A DNA stretch of 34,244 nucleotides from Acidimicrobiales bacterium (lineage in GTDB: Bacteria; Actinomycetota; Acidimicrobiia; Acidimicrobiales; Ilumatobacteraceae). The notes beneath the pieces are model-generated. The model was not told the origin of the DNA, ran no database searches, and saw only the letters and a program-made list of their open reading frames with translations. The DNA lies in assembly GCA_036406775.1 (NCBI GenBank), contig DASXAI010000158.1, positions 1 through 34,244 on the forward strand, written 5' to 3'. Shown here one piece after another: positions 3 to 32,226 of this stretch. The first letter of the stretch is position 1. Each line of letters opens with the position of its first letter. The translations under genes were made by a program, and so were the position numbers.

Positions 3-3000
3 GGCAACATCTACATCGCCCATCAGGGCGTCGGCGACCGGGTGACCGTCTTGGATCCGAGCCTGAGCCAGATCGCTGAGATCCCGATCACGAACCCGTT
101 CACCCCGGTCGTCAACGAGACGACTCGGCGTGTGTACTTCGCGCAGACGTTCGGTGGCGGCATCGAGGTCGTCGACGCCACGACGAACACGAGGATCACC
201 ACGGTGCCGACCTCCGGCACCTCGACGATCGCCGTCGACGTCGACGAGACCCGCAACCTCGTCTACGCCGTCGATCGGTTCAACAACACGTTGTCGATCA
301 TGGACGGCGCCACCAACACGATCATCAACACGGTCGCGACCGGTCAGAACCCGCGCGATATTGCGGTCGACGAAGCGCTGGACAAGGTCTATGTGACCAA
401 TACCGACTCGAACTCTGTCTACGTCTACCAGGGGAGCACGGGCACACTCCTGACAGGATTCTCGGCTCCGGGCGCGACCGGCGTGGCGATCAATGGCCAG
501 GACCATCGCGCCTACGTGACGAAGTCCGACGGCACCGTCTCAGTCGTCGACACGAAATACGACGACGTCGTAGACGTGTTGAGCGGCGGTTCACCCGGGC
601 AGCCGTGGGACGTCGTCACGAACGCGGCCGCGCACCGTGCGTACTACACGAGTCTCAGCCAAGCCGTCACCGTGCTCGACGACCCGCCGGCCCCGGCCTC
701 CCAGATCGTCGGCGTGCCGAACAGCCCGGTCGCCGAGAGTGCCTTCGACGCGGCCACGGCCGGCCAGACGGTGTCGACCATCGACTTCGACGACGGGCTG
801 GTCTCCGATGGCCAACCGGTCGCGACCGCGTACAGCTCGCGCGGCGTCGAGTTCAGCGGCATCGTCGGACGATCGACGACCAGCTTCACGTACTCGCCTC
901 CCATGGGTGTCTGGCAGGCGAACTTCGGCGTAGGCCCGCCGGCCCAGATCGTGCTCAATTTCACTCAGCCAGTAGCGAGCTTCGGCTTCTACGCCAACGA
1001 TCTCGAGGCGGACGCGCGGTTCCGGCTCGTGTTCACGGACGGCAGCGAGGGCGCGTACGGCGCCCGGCCGCTCGGCGGGGGTGCCAACGCGTCGACCTTC
1101 TACGGCTTCACGATGGCGACGAACTCGATCTCGCAGCTGCGTATCTCGACGGGCGACTACTTCATCCTCGATCACCTGAAGCTCGGCCGGGCGACGCCTA
1201 CGTTCGAGTTGAGCGTGACCAGTGCGGGCTCGGGCGCCGGCTCGGTGGCGTCGACGCCCACCGGCATCGACTGCGGAGCGACCTGTTCGGCGGCCTTCGC
1301 CGAGGGCACGTCGGTCACGCTGACCGCGGCCGCCAACCCGGGTTCGTTGTTCTCCGGATGGTCGGGCGCGTGCTCCGGCGTCGGGCCGTGCGCGGTGACG
1401 ATGACGGGGCAACGGTCGGTCACCGCCACCTTCGACCCGGCGCCGATCGGAATCTCCGGCACCGTCGCGAACTCCAACGGCGAGCCCGTCGGCGGGATCG
1501 AGGTCGACGCCCTCGACAGCGGCTTCTCGTTCGTCGCCTTCGCCATCACCGACGCCGCAGGCCGCTACTCGATCGTCGGTCTGCCCCCGGGCAGCTATCG
1601 GGTGCAGTTCTCGGACGTCTCGGCGACGCGTCTGTACTCGACCCAGTACTACAACGAGCAGTCGAGCCCGGCCTCGGCGAACGTCGTCGTCCTCGCCCCG
1701 GGTGCGGCGGTCACGGGCATCGACGCCGTGCTGGTCTCCACGTCGATCTCGGGAACGGTCACCGACGCGGCGGCGGGCGTGCCGCTCGCGGGCATCGAGG
1801 TGGACGCCTTCATGGATGGCTCCAGCGTGGGCTACGCGTTCACCGATGCCGCCGGTCACTACACGATCAGCGGCCTGTCGCCTGGGACGTTCCAGCTCGA
1901 ATTCCAGGACCCGCGGCCCGTCCGCGTGTACAGCCCACAGTTCTACAACGGGCAGGCCTCCGAAGGCTCGGCCACGCCGGTCGCGGTCGCGTCGGGTGAG
2001 CATCTGACGGGCTACGACGCCGCCCTGGTGATCACGTCGATCTCCGGGACCCTGACGAACACGAACGGAGATCCGGTCGAGGGCATCCAGGTCGACGCCC
2101 TCGACAACGGTGACTCGAGCGTGGGCTTCGGCGTCACGGATGCCGCCGGCCACTACACGATGAGCGGGTTGTCACCCGGTTCGTACCGTGTCCTGTTCAC
2201 CGACACGTCCCAACCGGCGCGGTACAGCCCGCAGTACTACCTCGGGCGCGCCACGTTCGCGTCGGCCAACCTGGTGACGGTTGCATCCGGTCAGGTGGTG
2301 ACCGGCATCGACGATGTCCTCTCCAGCGTCGTCGTCACCGGCACGGTGACCGACAGCAACGGCGTGCCGCTCGCCGGCATCGACGTGTCAGTGCAGGGAT
2401 CGTCGGGGTGGGCGGGTGGAGCCTCGACCGACAGCGCCGGCCACTACCGGATCGAGGGCCTGCCGGCGGGCCAGTTCCATGTCGCCTTCCATGATCCGAG
2501 CCTCGAATACACACCGGACCGCGCCTCGTCGCCGTTCACGTTGACACTGGGTGGCGCGCCCAAGCTCGTCGACATGCAGTTCCCGGCGGTCAACGGTCCC
2601 GATGGCGACGGCGTCCCGGCCCGGACCGAGAATGGAGCGCCGAACAACGGCGACGGAAACGCCGACGGCATCGCCGATGCGACACAAGCCAACGTGACGT
2701 CCCTCCCCGATGCCGGCAACGACGCCTATGTCACCATCGCGAGCCCCGCGGGCACCGCACTCGTCCAAGTCGATGCCCTCCCGCTCTCCCTGCCTGCGCC
2801 GGCGGGTGACTTTCCCGTGGGCCTGCTGGCCTTCCGGGTCGACGGCGTCACGCCAGGGGCCTCGGCTGCGGTCCAGGTATTCCTGCCGTCGGGGGCGGCT
2901 CCGAACGCGTTCTGGAAGTTCCAGCACGGCGCGTACAGCCAGTTCCCCGACGCGGCGGTCAACGGCAGTGTCGTGACGCTGAGCCTTCAGGACGGTGGTC

Positions 3001-5030
3001 CGTTCGACGCCGACGGCAGCGCCAACGGATCCATCGTCGATCCGATCGCCCTCGGCACCGTCACCACCGTCGCCACAACGACGTCGATGTCGTCGACGGT
3101 GAATCCCTCGGTGGCCGGCGATCCGGTGGTGCTCACCGCGACGGTCACGCCCGCGTCCGGCGCCACCTCCCCGAGCGGCACCGTCGTCTTCACCATCGAC
3201 GGGGTCGACCAGTCGCCCGCCGTGGGCGTCGTGAACGGTTCGGCCAGTCTCCCGCCGATCACCACCCTCGGCGTGGGCAACCACACGGTGACGGCGCGCT
3301 ACACGCCGGCCGACGGCGGCTTCCTGGCCAGCGACAGTCTCGCCGCGCCGTGGATCCAGTCGGTCGTGCCCGGGCCGCTGCATCATCTGGTCCTCGCGCC
3401 CGCGTCGGCGAGCGTGACGGCGGGCGTGTCACAGCAGTACTCCGCCGAAGGGTTCGACGCCCTGGGTAACGATCTCGGCGACAGGACCGCCGGCACGGTG
3501 TTCACGATCGCGCCCAATGGCTCCTGCGCCGCGAACTTGTGCTCGGCCACGACCACGGGCTCCCACACGGTGACGGGAACGGCCGGACCGGCGACAGGCA
3601 CGGCCACGCTCCTGGTCGTCGCCCCGACCGCTCCCGGGGCGCCGACCGTGACGTCGGTGACCCCGAGCCTGGGGCAGATCTCGGTCGCCTTCGCGCCCGG
3701 GTCCGACGGTGGATCGGCGATCACCGGGTACACGGCGAAGTGCACGTCGAGCAACGGTGGGGCGACGAGGTCGGTGAACGGCGCCGGGTCGCCCGTCGTG
3801 GTCACCGCGTTGACGAACACGAAGACCTACACCTGCACGGTCACCGCCAAGAACGCCGTCGGGACCGGGCCGGCATCGGCGCCCTCGGCGGCCGTGACGT
3901 TGCCGGTGGCGCCGGCCGCGCCCACCGTGACGTCGGTGACCCCGAGCCTGGGTCGCATCTCTGTCGAGTTCGCCGCGGGTCTCGATGGTGGTGCTCCCAT
4001 CACCGGGTTCACGGCGACGTGTGTCTCCAGCGACGGCGGCGTGACCAAGTCGACGACCGGCACCGGGTCGCCCATCGCGGTCGCCGGGCTGACGAACACG
4101 AAGACCTACACGTGCACGGTCACCGCCAAGAACGCCGTGGGAACGGGGCCGGCCTCGGCCCCGTCGGCCGCAGTCACGTTGCCGGTGGCGCCGGCGGCGC
4201 CCACCGTGACGTCGGTGATCCCGAGCCTGGGTCAGATCGTGCTGGCCTTCGTCGCCGGCTCCGATGGCGGCGCTCCCATCACCGGGTTCACGGCGACCTG
4301 TGTCTCCGGCGACGGCGGCGTGACCAAGTCGGCGACCGGCACCGGGTCGCCCATCGTGGTCACCGGGCTGACGAACACGAAGACCTACACGTGCACGGTC
4401 ACCGCCAAGAACGCCGTCGGGACCGGGCCAGCGTCGGCGCCGTCGGCCCCGGTCACGTTGCCGGTGGCGCCAGCGGCGCCCATCGTGACGTCGGTGACGC
4501 CGAGCCTGGGCCAGATCGTGGTGGCCTTCGTCGCCGGCTCCGACGGTGGATCGGCGATCACGGGGTACACGGCGAAGTGCACGTCGAGCGACGGTGGCAC
4601 GGCGAAGTCCGTCAACGGCACCGCGTCGCCCATCGCGATCACCGGGTTGACGAACACGAAGACCTACACCTGCACGGTCACCGCCAAGAACGCCGTCGGG
4701 ACCGGGCCCGCCTCGGCCCCGTCGGCTCCGGTCACGTTGCCGATGGCGCCGGCGGCGCCCACCGTGACGTCGGTGACCCCGGGCGTCGGTCAGATCGTGG
4801 TGGCCTTCGTTGCCGGCTCCGACGGCGGCGCTCCCATCACCGGCTACACCGCCAAGTGCACGTCGAGCAACGGTGGCACGGCGAAGTCCGTCAACGGCAC
4901 CGGGTCGCCCATCGTGGTCACCGGGCTGACGAACACGAAGACCTACACCTGCACGGTCACCGCCAAGAACGCCGTCGGGACCGGGCCCGCCTCGGCCCCG
5001 TCGGCGAGTGTGGTCGTGCCCAACGCCTGA
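3..5030 (+). CDS. Giant secreted/surface multidomain protein; the 5' end lies outside the window. Domains: YVTN-type beta-propeller repeats, InlB-B-like repeat, 4 carboxypeptidase-regulatory-like repeats, calcium-type D-rich linker, Ig-like domains, 5 FN3 domains.
   Basis: The track ORF is 42..5030, but the frame stays open back to nt 3 (GNIYIAHQGVGDRVTVLDP...) and continues the YVTN-like repeat pattern (VYVTN, YAVD, ...GQNPRDIAVD). GC3 is high throughout. Recognisable modules include GSGAGSVASTPTGIDCGATCSAAFAEGTSVTLTAAANPGSLFSGWSGAC (InlB-B-like), ISGTVxxxxGxPxxGIEVDA repeats, and TYTCTVTAKNAVGTGPAS FN3 units. No LPXTG or other anchor at the C-terminus (ends ...SVVVPNA). Confidence 0.85.
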   Translation, partial: GNIYIAHQGVGDRVTVLDPSLSQIAEIPITNPFTPVVNETTRRVYFAQTFGGGIEVVDATTNTRITTVPTSGTSTIAVDVDETRNLVYAVDRFNNTLSIMDGATNTIINTVATGQNPRDIAVDEALDKVYVTNTDSNSVYVYQGSTGTLLTGFSAPGATGVAINGQDHRAYVTKSDGTVSVVDTKYDDVVDVLSGGSPGQPWDVVTNAAAHRAYYTSLSQAVTVLDDPPAPASQIVGVPNSPVAESAFDAATAGQTVSTIDFDDGLVSDGQPVATAYSSRGVEFSGIVGRSTTSFTYSPPMGVWQANFGVGPPAQIVLNFTQPVASFGFYANDLEADARFRLVFTDGSEGAYGARPLGGGANASTFYGFTMATNSISQLRISTGDYFILDHLKLGRATPTFELSVTSAGSGAGSVASTPTGIDCGATCSAAFAEGTSVTLTAAANPGSLFSGWSGACSGVGPCAVTMTGQRSVTATFDPAPIGISGTVANSNGEPVGGIEVDALDSGFSFVAFAITDAAGRYSIVGLPPGSYRVQFSDVSATRLYSTQYYNEQSSPASANVVVLAPGAAVTGIDAVLVSTSISGTVTDAAAGVPLAGIEVDAFMDGSSVGYAFTDAAGHYTISGLSPGTFQLEFQDPRPVRVYSPQFYNGQASEGSATPVAVASGEHLTGYDAALVITSISGTLTNTNGDPVEGIQVDALDNGDSSVGFGVTDAAGHYTMSGLSPGSYRVLFTDTSQPARYSPQYYLGRATFASANLVTVASGQVVTGIDDVLSSVVVTGTVTDSNGVPLAGIDVSVQGSSGWAGGASTDSAGHYRIEGLPAGQFHVAFHDPSLEYTPDRASSPFTLTLGGAPKLVDMQFPAVNGPDGDGVPARTENGAPNNGDGNADGIADATQANVTSLPDAGNDAYVTIASPAGTALVQVDALPLSLPAPAGDFPVGLLAFRVDGVTPGASAAVQVFLPSGAAPNAFWKFQHGAYSQFPDAAVNGSVVTLSLQDGGPFDADGSANGSIVDPIALGTVTTVATTTSMSSTVNPSVAGDPVVLTATVTPASGATSPSGTVVFTIDGVDQSPAVGVVNGSASLPPITTLGVGNHTVTARYTPADGGFLASDSLAAPWIQSVVPGPLHHLVLAPASASVTAGVSQQYSAEGFDALGNDLGDRTAGTVFTIAPNGSCAANLCSATTTGSHTVTGTAGPATGTATLLVVAPTAPGAPTVTSVTPSLGQISVAFAPGSDGGSAITGYTAKCTSSNGGATRSVNGAGSPVVVTALTNTKTYTCTVTAKNAVGTGPASAPSAAVTLPVAPAAPTVTSVTPSLGRISVEFAAGLDGGAPITGFTATCVSSDGGVTKSTTGTGSPIAVAGLTNTKTYTCTVTAKNAVGTGPASAPSAAVTLPVAPAAPTVTSVIPSLGQIVLAFVAGSDGGAPITGFTATCVSGDGGVTKSATGTGSPIVVTGLTNTKTYTCTVTAKNAVGTGPASAPSAPVTLPVAPAAPIVTSVTPSLGQIVVAFVAGSDGGSAITGYTAKCTSSDGGTAKSVNGTASPIAITGLTNTKTYTCTVTAKNAVGTGPASAPSAPVTLPMAPAAPTVTSVTPGVGQIVVAFVAGSDGGAPITGYTAKCTSSNGGTAKSVNGTGSPIVVTGLTNTKTYTCTVTAKNAVGTGPASAPSASVVVPNA
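1452..2627 (+). repeat. Four tandem 294-bp (98-aa) diverged domain repeats of carboxypeptidase-regulatory/Cna-B-like type, inside the surface-protein gene
   Basis: Unit starts at 1452, 1746, 2040 and 2334 (ISGTVANSNGEPVGGIEVDAL / ISGTVTDAAAGVPLAGIEVDAF / ISGTLTNTNGDPVEGIQVDAL / VTGTVTDSNGVPLAGIDVSV). Each unit is followed by TDAAGxYxxxGLxPGxYxVxF. The spacing is exactly 294 nt. Confidence 0.6.
3621..5027 (+). repeat. Five tandem, near-identical 279-bp (93-aa) fibronectin type III coding repeats
   Basis: The string accgtgacgtcggtga (atcgtgacgtcggtga in unit 4) recurs at 3645, 3924, 4203, 4482 and 4761, exactly 279 nt apart. At protein level: PTVTSVTPSLGQI.VAF..GSDGG..ITGYTAKCTSS.GG..KSVNG.GSPI.VTGLTNTKTYTCTVTAKNAVGTGPASAPSA.VTLP, x5. 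Confidence 0.9.
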
Positions 5031-27149: not shown

Positions 27150-28016
27150 ATGGGGGACGACGACCTGCGTTCGGTGGCGCGTCGGTTGCGCGATCTGGTG
27201 GAACCGCTGGCCGCCAACGTGTACTTCGCTCCGGAGGCGGCTGCGGCCTACGAAGGCCTCGGCGTCAAGGGCTTCGGGCCCGGCTACTTCGCCAGCCGCG
27301 GCGGCTGCCTGGGCGACGTCCCCGGCGAGGTGGTCGCGGCCGCCTTCGGCGTGTTCAAGCCGACGTTGGTGAAGGAATGTATCGACGCCGCTCACCGTAG
27401 AGCCGACGCCACGGCCATGGTGGCCGCTCGCGAACAGGGCGCCGTCGCGAGTCTCACTCGGATCCTGGGAGCCGACGACGACGCCATGGCCGGCGTGCCG
27501 AGAGCCACGGAGCTCCTGCAGCGAGCGGCGACCGCGGCCCCGCCGGGCGAGGGCCGCGCCTTGTACTCGGGCCTCACCGCGCTCGGCTACCCGGGCACGC
27601 CGATCGGCGACCTCTGGCGAGCCTGCGATCTGGTGCGGGAGCACAGGGGCGACAGCCACATCATCGCGTGGGTCGGTCACGGCCTCGACCCGATCCAGGC
27701 CAACATCACCACCGAGTTGTGGTGGCGACTCCCGTTGCGCTCGTACGTCCGGACCCGTGGCTGGTCGGAGGACGAGATCGACGGCGCCGTCGAGCGGCTG
27801 CGGGAGCGAGGTCTCGTGGAGGATGAGACCTTCACGGTCGACGGCGAGGCGCTGCGGGCCGACGTCGAGCTGTGCACCGACCGCCAGGAGCGCCCCATCG
27901 TCGAGGCCCTCGGTGACGACGCCGAGCAGCTCCTCCGTCTGCTCACGCCGATGACCGATGCCGTCATCGCGACCAAGGGGTACCCACGCGATCCCCGCAC
28001 GCTCACTCGACCCTGA
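27150..28016 (+). CDS. Conserved helical protein of unknown function (resembles what I recall as the 'SCO6745 family')
   Basis: [62 protein letters not shown] matches the N-terminal pattern of that actinobacterial family as I remember it. High GC3. The last 14 nt overlap the convergent ADH gene. Confidence 0.7.
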
Positions 28017-29004
28017 GCACCGCCGCGCCGGTGACCCGCCCGTGGGCGAGGTCGGCCAGCGCCGTCGAGGCCTTGTCCAGCGGATAGGGCGTGGTGGTCG
28101 TCCGGATGGGGATGGTCGCCGCCAGGGCGAGCAGCTCCTCGCCGTCGCGGCGGGTGTTGGCGGTGACGCTGCGGAGCTGGCGCTCCTCGAACAGCTCGTC
28201 GGTGTATCGGAGGCGCGGGATGTCCGTGAGGTGGATGCCGGCGATGGCCAGCGTGCCGCCGCGGTCGAGGGCGCGCAACGCCACCGGGACGAGATCGCCC
28301 ACCGGCGCAAAGAGGACGGCCGAGTCGAGCGGCTCGGGGGGTGAGTCGTAGGCGTCGCCGGCCGAGGCGCAGCCGAGCTCGAGGGCGAGCCGGCGCGCCT
28401 CGTCACCCCGCGTCAGCACGTGGACCGTGGCGCCCTCGTGCAGGGCGACCTGGGCCGTGATGTGGGCCGAACCGCCGAAGCCGTAGATGCCGAGGCGGCC
28501 ACCGGGCGGCAGCAGCGATCGGCGCAGGGCCCGGTAGCCGATGATGCCGGCGCACAGGAGCGGAGCGGCGTGCTCGTCGTCGAAGACGTCGGGGAGGCGG
28601 TAGGCGTAGGCCTCCTCGATCACGGCGTACTCGGCGTAGCCGCCGTCGGCGTCCCAGCCCGTGAAGCCGGGCGCCACGCACAGGTTCTCGTCGCCGCGAC
28701 GGCAGAACCGGCAGACCCCGTCGGTGTGCCGCAGCCACGGGATGCCGATGCGCTCGCCGGTGCGGAACCGGTCGGCCCCGGGACCGCGGTCGTCCACGAC
28801 GCCGACCACCTCGTGTCCGAGGACCACGCCGGGCCGCTTCGGCGTCAGGTCGCCCTCGGCCAGGTGGAGGTCGGTACGGCACACGCCACACGCCGAGACC
28901 CGGACCCGGACCTCGCCCGGCCCGGGCGTCGGGACCGGGCGCTCGACGAGTTCGACCGGGCCGGTGTCGATCGGACCCGGCTGGGTGACGGCCCAGGCGC
29001 GCAC
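28003..29004 (-). CDS. Zinc-dependent alcohol dehydrogenase (MDR superfamily)
   Basis: Catalytic and structural zinc motifs: [33 protein letters not shown]. Rossmann motif [13 protein letters not shown] start at 29004. Confidence 0.92.
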
Positions 29005-29027: not shown

Positions 29028-30110
29028 GTGATCCTCGATTCGCTGGTCGTCGACGCCGGCGCCTTCGCCGAGCGGACGGGTTGGGTCGCCAAGCCCGAGG
29101 GCCTCTGCAAGGCCGAGATGTGCGTGCCGGCGCCCGGCGCCGATCGTGGCGACGGCACGTTGGACGTCGGCGTGGTAGCGGAGCGACTCCGGATGCCGCT
29201 CCTGCACGACGACACCTACGGCGTCTGGGCGCTGGGGCCGGAGTCCGGCGGCCGGGCGCTGGCGTCGGCCGAGGCCGCTGATCCCGAACTGATCACGGTC
29301 GACGGCAACCCGTTCAAGTTGTCGTCGCTCCACGGGCGCAAGGTGCTGCTCGTGGCGTGGGCCAGTTGGTGAGGCTGCCGCCTGAGCCTGCCCGGGTGGC
29401 AGGCACTGCACGCCGAGCTGTCGCCGCAAGGACTCACCGTCGTCACCGTCGCCCTCGACGTCAACCCTGACGACGCCCGGCCCTGGATCGCGGCGGCGGC
29501 ATTCACGCATCCGAGCCTCATCGACACGACCCACGTCACCGACGAGCTGTTCGGATTCATCAACGTGCCGATGGCGGTGTGGATCGACGAGCAGGGGATG
29601 CTGGTGCGGCCGGCCGAGCAAGCCGCCGTCGAGCGCAGCCCGCTGCGCGACGTCGAGATCCCCGACAACCTGCCGGACCGCCTGCACCAGATGCTGACGG
29701 AGGTCAAGCAGATCCACGACCCGTCAGACGACTATCGGTCCGCCCTCGTCGACTGGGTGACGAACGGCGCCGCCAGTCGCTTCGTGCTCACGCCCGACGA
29801 GGTCGTGGCCCGATCCGGTGACCGCCCGGTGGAGCACGCCCGCGCCGCCGCCGCCTTCGAGCTCGGCCAGCACCTGTGGCGCACGGTCGGCAACGACGCC
29901 GCCATTCCGTGGTGGCGGGAGGCGCATCGGCTGTTCCCCGACAACTGGACGTACAAGCGCCAGGCGTGGACGTTCGTCACCACGCCGCCGGGCGCCACCG
30001 AGCCCGACCTCATCCAGGGACCGAACGACGTGTACGAGGGCAACTGGCTCGACGACGTGCTCGCCGTCGGCGGAGGCGCCAACTACTACCGCCGCCCCGA
30101 CTTCAGCTAG
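29028..30110 (+). CDS. Candidate selenoprotein: ResA/TlpA-like thioredoxin-fold protein with in-frame UGA (Sec) at 29370-29372, motif W-A-S-W-U-G-C
   Basis: Track ORFs 29028..29372 and 29565..30110 share a frame. My translation of 29373-29564 shows no other stop. The TGA replaces the first redox Cys of the thioredoxin-fold motif (KVLLVAWASW*GCRLSLP...GLTVVTVALD). A SECIS-like hairpin follows. Confidence 0.7.
29386..29404 (+). promoter_or_regulatory. Candidate bacterial SECIS hairpin
   Basis: GCCUGCC-CGGGU-GGCAGGC: a perfect 7-bp stem with a 5-nt G-rich apical loop. The stem starts 13 nt after the UGA and the loop about 20 nt after it. Confidence 0.55.
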
Positions 30111-30216: not shown

Positions 30217-32226
30217 GTGCTGCGGTGGCGCACCGTCGAGGACGATCCGCAAGGGACGTTGTTCCGGGACGAGGAGCTGGTCGACCGGCATGTGGGCCGG
30301 GGCGAGTTCCGCGGCCTCGAGTTCTTCCACGTCCGCGCCCGGACTGTGATCAACCAGGTGCCGGCCTCGAGCCGCATGCCGTTCAGCCACACGATCAACG
30401 CCTACCGAGGTTGCAGCCATGCCTGTGTCTATTGCGTCCTCGGCGACACACCAGTGCTGATGGCGGACGGGACGGTGCGGCCGATCGTCGAGCTCGAGCC
30501 GGACGACGTAGTCGTCGGCACGGAACGCCACGGACGCTACCGCCGGTTCGTGCCGAGCCGCGTGTTGGATCGGTTCGCGAGCCGGCGAGAGGCCTATCGA
30601 GTGACGCTCGCCGACGGGACCGAGCTCGTCGCCAGCGGTGACCACCGTTTCCTTACCGGCCGGGGTTGGAAGCACGTCACAGGCGCAGAGCAGGGTGCCA
30701 GACGCCGACCCCACCTGACGTTGAACGATGAGCTCCTGGGCACGGGCGCCTTCGTTGCGCCGCCGGCCATCGACGCCGACTACCGACGCGGCTACCTGTC
30801 CGGAATGATCCGAGGCGACGGGCCCATCGGGCACTACGAGTACTCGTCGCGCCAGCGCCGAGACGTCTTCCACCGATTCCGTCTCGCCCTTGCTGACGAC
30901 GAAGCGTTGCTCCGCGCCCGAAACTACCTCGCGTCCTTTGGGGTGGAGACGGGCGAGTTCGCCTTCGGAGAAGGCAGTGAGACCCGCCGGCCGATGCGAG
31001 CGATCCGCTGCCAGAGCGCGGGCGCCGTGGCCAAGGTCGAGTCGCTCATCGCGTGGCCGGAGGCTCCGACCACGGCGTGGCGACGTGGATTCCTGGCCGG
31101 CATCTTCGACGCCGAGGGCAGCTACAGCCGCGGCATCCTGCGCATGTCGAACAAGGACCAGCGGATACTGGCCGAGATCGGGGGGTGCCTGATGTCGCTC
31201 GGCTTCCGCGTCGTGGTGGAGCCGGTACGTGCGAACGGCGTCTGCTGCCTACGTGTGCCCGGTGGGATCTGCGAACACATTCGCTTCTTCCACACCGTCG
31301 ATCCCGCCATCAGCCGAAAGCGCGCCATCGTCGGCCAGGCCATCAAGAACAAGGCCGACTTGCGGGTCAAGGCCGTCGAACCCGTCGGGCTCGAGCTTCC
31401 GATGTACGACATCACGACGACGACGGGTGACTTCATCGCCAACGGCGTGGTCAGCCACAACTGTTTCGCGCGGCCGACGCACGACTACCTGGGGTTCGGC
31501 ATCGGCGACGACTTCGACCGCAAGATCGTCGTGAAGGTCAACGCGGTCGAGCGCGTACGGGCCGAGCTGGCGTCGCCGCGGTGGGGTGGGCACGCCATCG
31601 CCATGGGCACCAACACCGACCCGTACCAGCGGGCCGAGGGCAAGTACCACCTGACGCAAGGCATCGTCGCCGCCCTCGGCGAGGCCGCCAACCCGTTCTC
31701 CATCCTCACCAAGTCGACGCTGATCCTGCGCGACCTCGATCTGTTGCAGGCGGCGGCCGTCCGCACCGACGTTCGCACCAGCTTCTCCATCGGCACCCTC
31801 GATCCCGACGTGTGGCGCCTCACCGAACCTGGCACGCCCCATCCCCGCCGACGCGTCGAGGCGGTGGCTCGACTGAACGAGGCCGGCATCCCGTGCGGCG
31901 TCCTCGTGGCGCCGGTGTTGCCCGGGCTGTCCGACCACGACGACCAACTGGCCGAAGTGGCGGAGGCCTGCGTCGACGCCGGGGCGACCTTCATCTCGGC
32001 GATGTACCTGCACCTGCGGCCCGGCGTGCGGGAGCACTGGATGCAGTGGATGCAGCGCGCCCTGCCCGATCGGGTGGCCGAGTACGAAGCGCGCTACGCG
32101 GGGCGCGCCTACCTCGGGTCGCGACAGCAGAAGGAGCTGGCGGCGCGGATGGACGGGATGGTGGCGGCGGCTCGACGCCGGGCCTCTCCCGTTTCACGCC
32201 AGAAAAACGACGCCCCACGTCGATAA
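30217..32226 (+). CDS. Radical SAM protein of the SplB/Rv2578c-like (DNA-repair-photolyase-like) family, interrupted by an intein
   Basis: Exteins: ...FSHTINAYRGCSHACVY | CFARPTHDYLGFGIGDDFDRKIVVKVNA...GTNTDPYQ...ILTKS. Joined, they restore the CxxxCxxC motif. The spliced product is predicted to be 326 aa. Confidence 0.9.
   Translation: MLRWRTVEDDPQGTLFRDEELVDRHVGRGEFRGLEFFHVRARTVINQVPASSRMPFSHTINAYRGCSHACVYCVLGDTPVLMADGTVRPIVELEPDDVVVGTERHGRYRRFVPSRVLDRFASRREAYRVTLADGTELVASGDHRFLTGRGWKHVTGAEQGARRRPHLTLNDELLGTGAFVAPPAIDADYRRGYLSGMIRGDGPIGHYEYSSRQRRDVFHRFRLALADDEALLRARNYLASFGVETGEFAFGEGSETRRPMRAIRCQSAGAVAKVESLIAWPEAPTTAWRRGFLAGIFDAEGSYSRGILRMSNKDQRILAEIGGCLMSLGFRVVVEPVRANGVCCLRVPGGICEHIRFFHTVDPAISRKRAIVGQAIKNKADLRVKAVEPVGLELPMYDITTTTGDFIANGVVSHNCFARPTHDYLGFGIGDDFDRKIVVKVNAVERVRAELASPRWGGHAIAMGTNTDPYQRAEGKYHLTQGIVAALGEAANPFSILTKSTLILRDLDLLQAAAVRTDVRTSFSIGTLDPDVWRLTEPGTPHPRRRVEAVARLNEAGIPCGVLVAPVLPGLSDHDDQLAEVAEACVDAGATFISAMYLHLRPGVREHWMQWMQRALPDRVAEYEARYAGRAYLGSRQQKELAARMDGMVAAARRRASPVSRQKNDAPRR
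30433..31461 (+). mobile_element. Intein (343 aa) with a LAGLIDADG homing-endonuclease domain
   Basis: Begins with Cys (CVLGDTPVLMADG, block A). Block B is LVASGDHRFLT. The two LAGLIDADG motifs are YLSGMIRGDG and FLAGIFDAEGS. It ends ...GDFIANGVVSHN, followed by the +1 Cys (CFARP). Confidence 0.9.

Follow-up and report, generated by a model that had tools for sequence, protein, structure and literature searches.

The window analysed here, the whole stretch of 34,244 nucleotides, carries on its forward strand, between positions 29028 and 30110, what is very probably a single gene, whose 360-residue product is a selenoprotein of the catalogued WAxxUGC family, known also as the UGC-containing peroxiredoxin (Prx)/TlpA-like family. 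A list of open reading frames (ORFs) cuts this locus into 29028..29372 and 29565..30110, both in the same frame, and the only internal stop of the 360 codons is the TGA at 29370-29372. The original prediction had proposed that this TGA encodes selenocysteine (Sec) and that the gene is split there by annotation, which is supported by the match of the joined product to the family model NF041054, by the presence of Sec or Cys at the corresponding column of homologues, by the selection acting on the downstream sequence and by a hairpin linked to the TGA form of the gene. The predicted features of the locus are given below.

29028..30110, + strand: complete selenoprotein coding sequence, with a GTG start, one Sec-UGA and a TAG stop at 30108-30110.
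29106..29123, + strand: two invariant Cys residues, C27-x4-C32, on a beta-hairpin within the N-terminal domain, seen in the family alignment and in a structural model of a Cys homologue (P0002).
29271..29612, + strand: thioredoxin-fold (TlpA/ResA-like) domain, residues ~82-195, from Pfam, PDB profile hits and Foldseek.
29358..29378, + strand: W-A-S-W-U-G-C active-site motif, residues 111-117, with invariant positions across 37 aligned family members.
29370..29372, + strand: UGA codon for selenocysteine U115, at the Sec/Cys column of the homologues and at the first Cys of CxxC in 3kcm.
29386..29404, + strand: bacterial selenocysteine insertion sequence (SECIS) hairpin, with the 5′ arm at 29386-29392, the loop CGGGU at 29393-29397 and the 3′ arm at 29398-29404.
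29670..30107, + strand: C-terminal helical domain, residues ~215-360, with the invariant NWTYKR motif, from a high-confidence helical model.
~29841-29945, + strand: single tetratricopeptide repeat (TPR)-like helix pair within the C-terminal domain, from profile positions 276-310.

The translation of 29028-30110 reads KVLLVAWASW-TGA-GCRLSLPGWQ around the internal stop and agrees with the earlier description of two ORFs in one frame with a lone TGA between them; the by-eye translation of 29373-29564 that accompanied this description, and all of its coordinates, were found to be correct on recomputation. The next in-frame start codon past the TGA is the GTG at 29565, 64 codons downstream. The GC content at third codon positions (GC3) is 0.90 and 0.93 on the two sides of the TGA, values that are coding-like, in a window with 69% GC.

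Family membership was assessed by profile searches of the joined product, run with U read as C. The product matched the NCBIfam equivalog NF041054, named "ResA-like WAxxUGC motif-containing protein" (WAxxUGC_long), scoring 514.4 bits (E = 1.7e-154) where the curated cutoff is 300; the match was end to end, placing residues 2-357 on model positions 2-352 of 354. The motif of this model is present as W111-A-S-W-TGA-G-C117, with the U supplied by the in-frame TGA. The 'WAxxUGC' protein family named in the original prediction does exist, as NF041054, and the window protein passes its curated cutoff. In Pfam, AhpC-TSA and Redoxin were matched over residues 82-191 (PF00578, 43.5 bits; gathering score, 26). 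The cutoffs of the curated ResA, TlpA, StoA and DsbE models were not reached (37.8 vs 170, 40.7 vs 230, 31.2 vs 210 and 17.2 vs 359 bits).

The family had also been described in the literature under other names. A predicted selenoprotein designated "Prx-like (UGC-containing)" was listed in the 2008 Global Ocean Sampling (GOS) study, with 46 Sec sequences and 855 Cys homologues, and was commoner in non-marine samples (PMC2398784), while one Prx-like UXC sequence figured in the 2005 Sargasso Sea paper (PMC1088965) and a predicted selenoprotein "UGC-containing TlpA family" is listed in a 2026 review (PMC13188914). These families and the window gene share the same UGC motif, the encoding of U by TGA, PF00578 and the mixture of Sec and Cys forms, and the reported non-marine bias (PMC2398784) fits the freshwater and soil Acidimicrobiia metagenome-assembled genomes (MAGs) found here. 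Their equation with NF041054 rests on motif, Pfam domain and name; no paper using the string "WAxxUGC" was found in the literature. There is no material difference between NF041054 and the window gene, which is an orthologous member of a predicted selenoprotein family that had been curated and published before.

The comparison with relatives revealed a widespread exchange of Cys and Sec at the critical position. A scan of one genome per species recovered 78 related loci, 76 of which aligned across the critical column, and the codon found in these 76 species-level genomes was TGA in 46, TGC in 27 and TGT in three, flanked by an otherwise invariant WA[ST][WY]-x-GC context. The 46 TGA forms and 30 TGC/TGT forms bear out the Cys/Sec interchange proposed earlier, and termination at this column is not general among the homologues, whose frames continue past it with Cys or a predicted Sec. 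The TGA forms were found mostly in Acidimicrobiia and Ilumatobacteraceae MAGs, plus two Chloroflexota genomes and one Binataceae genome, and the Cys forms include those of Frankia, Gordonia, Nocardioides and Rhodoferax-type Betaproteobacteria. The TGA-type members from Chloroflexota (Tepidiformaceae, Dehalococcoidia) and Binataceae, at L055:822, L056:2113 and L068:6352, present the hairpin at the same position. Since such members exist, the Sec form and its SECIS are common to several phyla, either by ancestry or by transfer.

The protein databases present the same family in a different guise. Its full-length relatives there (348-371 residues) are Cys forms with WASWCGC, and about 70 of the best 120 protein hits are C-terminal fragments of 205-244 residues (P0001 and P0007-P0012 among them), annotated as "hypothetical protein" and devoid of Pfam domains. 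These fragments come from Sec-type genes that gene callers have cut, and the Sec-type members of the family are systematically mis-split in public records.

The region downstream of the TGA behaves as coding sequence throughout the Sec-type loci. Every contig-complete Sec-type locus keeps 223-254 open codons past the TGA, which equals the C-terminal length of the Cys forms. The ratio of nonsynonymous to synonymous substitution rates (dN/dS) between the window gene and its TGA-type relative L001, on the 928-kb MAG contig CAWCTH010000011.1, was 0.24 downstream and 0.16 upstream of the TGA, and the 64 codons placed right after the TGA gave a median dN/dS of 0.40 over 586 pairs. Values of 0.2-0.5 exceed those of typical enzymes, probably owing to the depression of dS by GC3 codon bias, and they were used solely to establish that ω stays under 1 and differs little between the two sides of the TGA. 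The dN/dS below 1, together with the 223-254 open codons, indicated purifying selection past the TGA rather than neutral evolution. Among the individual loci, the close relatives L052 (6343-6402) and L049 (6337-6396) differ by one nucleotide in length about 45 nt past the TGA (GCGCGCTCGAGCTC vs GCGCGCTGAGCTC), a difference that may stem from a frameshift introduced by long-read MAG assembly, and L049 has an unusually high downstream dN relative to the window.

The hairpin that follows the UGA is a perfect 7-bp stem-loop, GCCUGCC/CGGGU/GGCAGGC, with an energy of –14.2 kcal/mol, starting 13 nt from the UGA and presenting its apical loop 20 nt from it. The constraints published for bacterial SECIS (bSECIS) elements are a loop of 3-9 nt with a G in its first two positions, an upper stem of 4-16 bp, a UGA-loop distance of 16-37 nt and a minimum free energy ≤ –7.5 kcal/mol (PMC13188914). 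The window hairpin satisfies all four published constraints, with a 5-nt loop and G at loop position 2, 7 bp, 20 nt and –14.2 kcal/mol, and both the coordinates and the bSECIS geometry put forward in the original prediction were confirmed. Considered by itself, such a hairpin is barely beyond chance, as a perfect 7-bp hairpin with a G in the first two loop positions and a spacing of 16-37 nt follows about 1.8% of the window positions, and the case therefore rests on the comparison with relatives. Four further TGA triplets, in any frame, at 2275, 5168, 21286 and 25592 (+) also precede a perfect 7-bp bSECIS-like hairpin, a number equal to that expected by chance. The minimum-energy fold of the single sequence yielded a different, non-conserved pairing and was set aside in favour of the alignment-supported hairpin.

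The hairpin was kept in every one of the 47 Sec-type sequences, which comprise the window gene and 46 related loci, and degraded in the Cys-type ones, so that no TGA orthologue was found to have lost it. Counted from the loop, the Sec-type stems had on average 6.3 contiguous pairs, with –11.7 kcal/mol; the corresponding means for 30 Cys-type sequences were 1.7 contiguous pairs and –5.3 kcal/mol (Mann-Whitney p ~1e-13, uncorrected for phylogeny). As the conserved peptide L-P-(G/V)-W-Q could itself explain the conservation of the hairpin, a further comparison was limited to sequences encoding L-P-x-W: the third base of the Leu codon, which takes part in the central G-C pair, was G in all 47 Sec-type sequences and in only 3 of 12 Cys-type ones (Fisher p = 1.8e-8, again without phylogenetic correction). 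Moreover, L019 and L042 showed a double compensatory change, TTG...CAA, replacing C-G by U-A, and RNAalifold on the Sec-type alignment recovered a 6-bp core with two pairs changed on both sides; three stem pairs never vary and are uninformative either way. The 7-bp structure described above pairs in 91.8% of the alignment cells, a share that drops to 26-64% if the partners are displaced by 1-3 columns. The apical loops (CGGGU, CGUGU, AGGUU, GGUCU and AGUCU) carry G followed by G or U within their first positions.

These properties place the hairpin close to the E. coli fdhF-type SECIS and the bSECISearch consensus, with which it shares its location within the coding sequence after the UGA, a small loop with G then G/U, the 20-nt spacing, an upper stem of 6-7 bp and an energy below –7.5 kcal/mol. 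Unlike the E. coli fdhF-type SECIS, it is short and simple, with no conserved lower stem or bulged U detected. The hairpin is accordingly described here as a functional-looking, predicted bacterial SECIS.

Several observations weigh against the interpretation of the locus as a selenoprotein gene. No selA, selB or selD was found among the annotated genes of the window, no tRNA-Sec was found in the window, where the only tRNA found was tRNA-Met, and none was found around the 60 relatives whose flanks were scanned for tRNAs (L001-L060). An exact match to a neighbouring protein was recovered from a single record, a 3.4-kb JGI metagenome contig. Counting in favour, Sec machinery is documented in the class Acidimicrobiia: according to a 2026 preprint, each of the 84 complete genomes of another of its lineages, Actinomarina, has selA, selB, selC and selD (bioRxiv 10.64898/2026.04.03.716425). 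At the RNA level, a 67-nt stretch containing the hairpin folds no better than its dinucleotide shuffles (z = 0.43), and Rfam searches with a permissive E-value, covering the window as well as 29300-29500, returned no SECIS family and only chance-level hits, a result that is expected given the poor representation of bacterial SECIS elements in that database. Covariation is restricted to two pairs because the hairpin overlaps the conserved peptide (LPGWQ), and the contrasts between Sec-type and Cys-type sequences are uncorrected for shared ancestry. Finally, the literature yielded no experimental work on any member of the family.

The lack of Sec machinery in the 34-kb window scanned would suit a pseudogene created by a nonsense mutation, or a Cys-type gene in which assembly or sequencing had wrongly turned TGC into TGA, as would the facts that TGC/TGT Cys-type homologues exist and that TGC to TGA is a one-base change. 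Such an origin is extremely improbable, since 46 species-level genomes of three phyla, each assembled independently, have this TGA, the downstream frame remains open for 223-254 codons in the complete TGA-type loci, the downstream region has coding GC3 and is under purifying selection, and the hairpin is maintained at synonymous sites in the TGA forms only. The locus could otherwise comprise two genes, one for a 114-residue protein ending at the TGA and the other for an independently initiated C-terminal protein, as would be suggested by the split in the ORF list and by the many C-terminal 'hypothetical proteins' of 205-244 residues in the databases. This arrangement is highly unlikely: the 64 codons preceding the GTG at 29565 are themselves under purifying selection (the median dN/dS of 0.40 given above) and encode conserved thioredoxin-fold strands, so that a start at 29565 would yield a truncated domain; the active-site motif would be cut between W114 and G116; and the Cys-type relatives are single polypeptides of 348-371 residues.

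An equally small probability attaches to the reading of the UGA as Trp, Gly or Cys, by a reassigned code or by near-cognate suppression. It would agree with the Sec machinery not having been observed directly and with the reassignment of UGA known in some bacteria. The code is standard in this case, as TGA ends 13 of the 18 confident genes of the window, which is a normal stop usage, and many Sec-type genes of the same family themselves terminate in TGA. Furthermore, the recoded site falls in the redox Cys column, which is the signature of Sec, and the linked hairpin fits the SelB-dependent bSECIS model. A selenoprotein gene interrupted by its own Sec codon is the explanation that accommodates the family match, the Sec/Cys column, the selection and the hairpin.

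The architecture of the selenoprotein was examined by means of the family alignment and of an AlphaFold2 model of P0002, the closest full-length Cys homologue (63% identical). The alignment of 37 members showed C27, C32, W111, A112, S113, C/U115, G116, C117 and R118 to be invariant, as well as H161-P162, N179-x-P181 and N306-W-T-Y-K-R311; the two N-terminal Cys residues mentioned in the original prediction correspond to C27 and C32. The P0002 model is folded from residue 2, with a mean predicted local distance difference test (pLDDT) score of 91 and a predicted template-modelling (pTM) score of 0.89, and is composed of an N-terminal beta-rich domain, in which strands 25-28 and 31-33 bear C27 and C32, a thioredoxin fold with its active-site helix beginning at residue 116, and a C-terminal domain made of helices. 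In the PDB, profile hits to ResA, TlpA and DsbE reached E = 1e-14 to 1e-18. In the Foldseek search with the P0002 model only the central ~120 residues matched the PDB, ResA being the best match (probability 1.00; TM-score ~0.75 normalised to the target; root-mean-square deviation ~2 Å), and no full-length structural counterpart was found. In the alignment to the solved structure 3kcm, U115 coincides with the leading Cys of CxxC, and the site is one residue shorter (WaswCG.Cr vs WATWCPPCR), in agreement with the earlier proposals that the UGA occupies the N-terminal redox Cys position of a ResA/TlpA-type fold and that the spacing is U-x-C instead of CxxC.

The description of the protein as ResA/TlpA-like stands for the fold, which was recovered by both PDB profiles and Foldseek, and fails for true membership in ResA or TlpA, as there is no CxxC and no membrane anchor and the scores lie far below the cutoffs of those models. 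The central domain resembles ResA, TlpA and CcmG(DsbE) in its thioredoxin fold with the TlpA-type insertion, in the W-A-[ST]-W-C...C-R residues around the active site and in the conserved Pro loop. Unlike these proteins, the window protein has U-G-C, one residue shorter than CxxC, no detected signal peptide or anchor, and two additional domains, one of ~80 residues with C-x4-C at the N-terminus and a helical one of ~160 residues at the C-terminus. None of the 37 members has a hydrophobic N-terminus (maximum 19-residue Kyte-Doolittle mean ≤ 1.08 in the N-terminal region) or a transmembrane-like segment anywhere, as judged by Kyte-Doolittle hydropathy, and the protein is for this reason predicted to be cytoplasmic, unlike ResA, TlpA and CcmG. 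On these grounds, the product is most likely soluble and cytoplasmic. The peroxidatic motif P-x-x-x-T-x-x-C/U of peroxiredoxins (PMC13188914) is absent, V-A-W-A-S-W preceding U115 with no Thr at –3 and no Pro at –7, which argues against a classical Prx mechanism.

In the proposed mechanism, when the UGA at 29370 enters the A site of the ribosome, the hairpin would recruit SelB·GTP·Sec-tRNA(Sec), as in the established bacterial Sec mechanism, selenocysteine would be inserted and translation would go on. U115 would then stand at the N-terminus of the active-site helix, in the place of the attacking Cys of CxxC proteins, with C117 two residues on. The chemistry, as judged from sequence, is most likely thiol/selenol-disulfide exchange: U115 would attack the oxidised substrate, and C117 would resolve the intermediate to a U115-C117 selenenylsulfide, later re-reduced, in a cycle that may serve thiol-disulfide exchange or the reduction of peroxides. 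A likeness to the U-G-C centre, with no homology implied, is found in the eukaryotic Sep15/SELENOF, which has a thioredoxin-like fold and a Cys/Sec pair split by one Gly; Sep15/SELENOF differs in that its CGU order is reversed, it resides in the endoplasmic reticulum, it is eukaryotic and it depends on a SECIS in the 3′ untranslated region. A further and tentative possibility is that the family constitutes a cytoplasmic three-domain selenoenzyme, distinct from the ResA-type reductases of cytochrome or copper-site maturation, in which a strained U-G-C selenenylsulfide centre would be served by the invariant C27-x4-C32 hairpin together with the TPR-like C-terminal domain, these forming a built-in redox relay or a module for substrate recognition. 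If so, its substrate or chemistry would be one not yet assigned to any thioredoxin-fold protein.

With regard to genomic context, the neighbourhood composed of GNAT, HTH_67, the selenoprotein gene, a radical SAM gene of the Rv2578c type and NUDIX recurs mainly in related Acidimicrobiia, distant Cys-type loci not sharing it, and a functional link was not adopted from this synteny, given its restriction to relatives. One neighbourhood cluster, L007:7601-8959, matched no family; it is probably a shadow ORF. Directly downstream of the selenoprotein gene, at 30217-32226 (+), lies the gene for an Rv2578c-family radical SAM protein, whose sequence is interrupted by an intein that carries a homing endonuclease of the LAGLIDADG type (NF038136, 673 bits, just below the cutoff of 700; Pfam Radical_SAM, Intein_splicing and LAGLIDADG_3). 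On the opposite strand, at 28003-29004 (–), a zinc alcohol dehydrogenase (TIGR02822, 527 bits) starts 23 nt from the start of the selenoprotein gene, leaving almost no space for two promoters and leaders. This dehydrogenase looks like an insertion in this lineage, as an HTH_67/SCO6745-family gene is directly upstream in most of the related Sec-type loci. At the other end of the window, 42-5030 (+) holds a very large ORF, which is open where the window starts and encodes 1662 residues or more, with repeated fibronectin-III, CarboxypepD_reg, SdrD-B and Ig-like domains, whose product is probably a cell-surface protein.

The U-x-C centre, the soluble three-domain build and the invariant second Cys pair make this family a reasonable target for biochemistry, even if its existence is not unexpected to selenoprotein specialists. 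The 47 Sec-type and 30 Cys-type sequences also provide clean natural evidence for a minimal bacterial SECIS of 6-7 bp inside a conserved peptide. For annotation, standard gene callers cut this gene at its Sec codon, and joining the two ORFs restores a conserved redox enzyme. Consequently to this reading of the locus, the source organism, probably an Acidimicrobiia-type actinobacterium, is indicated to decode selenocysteine.

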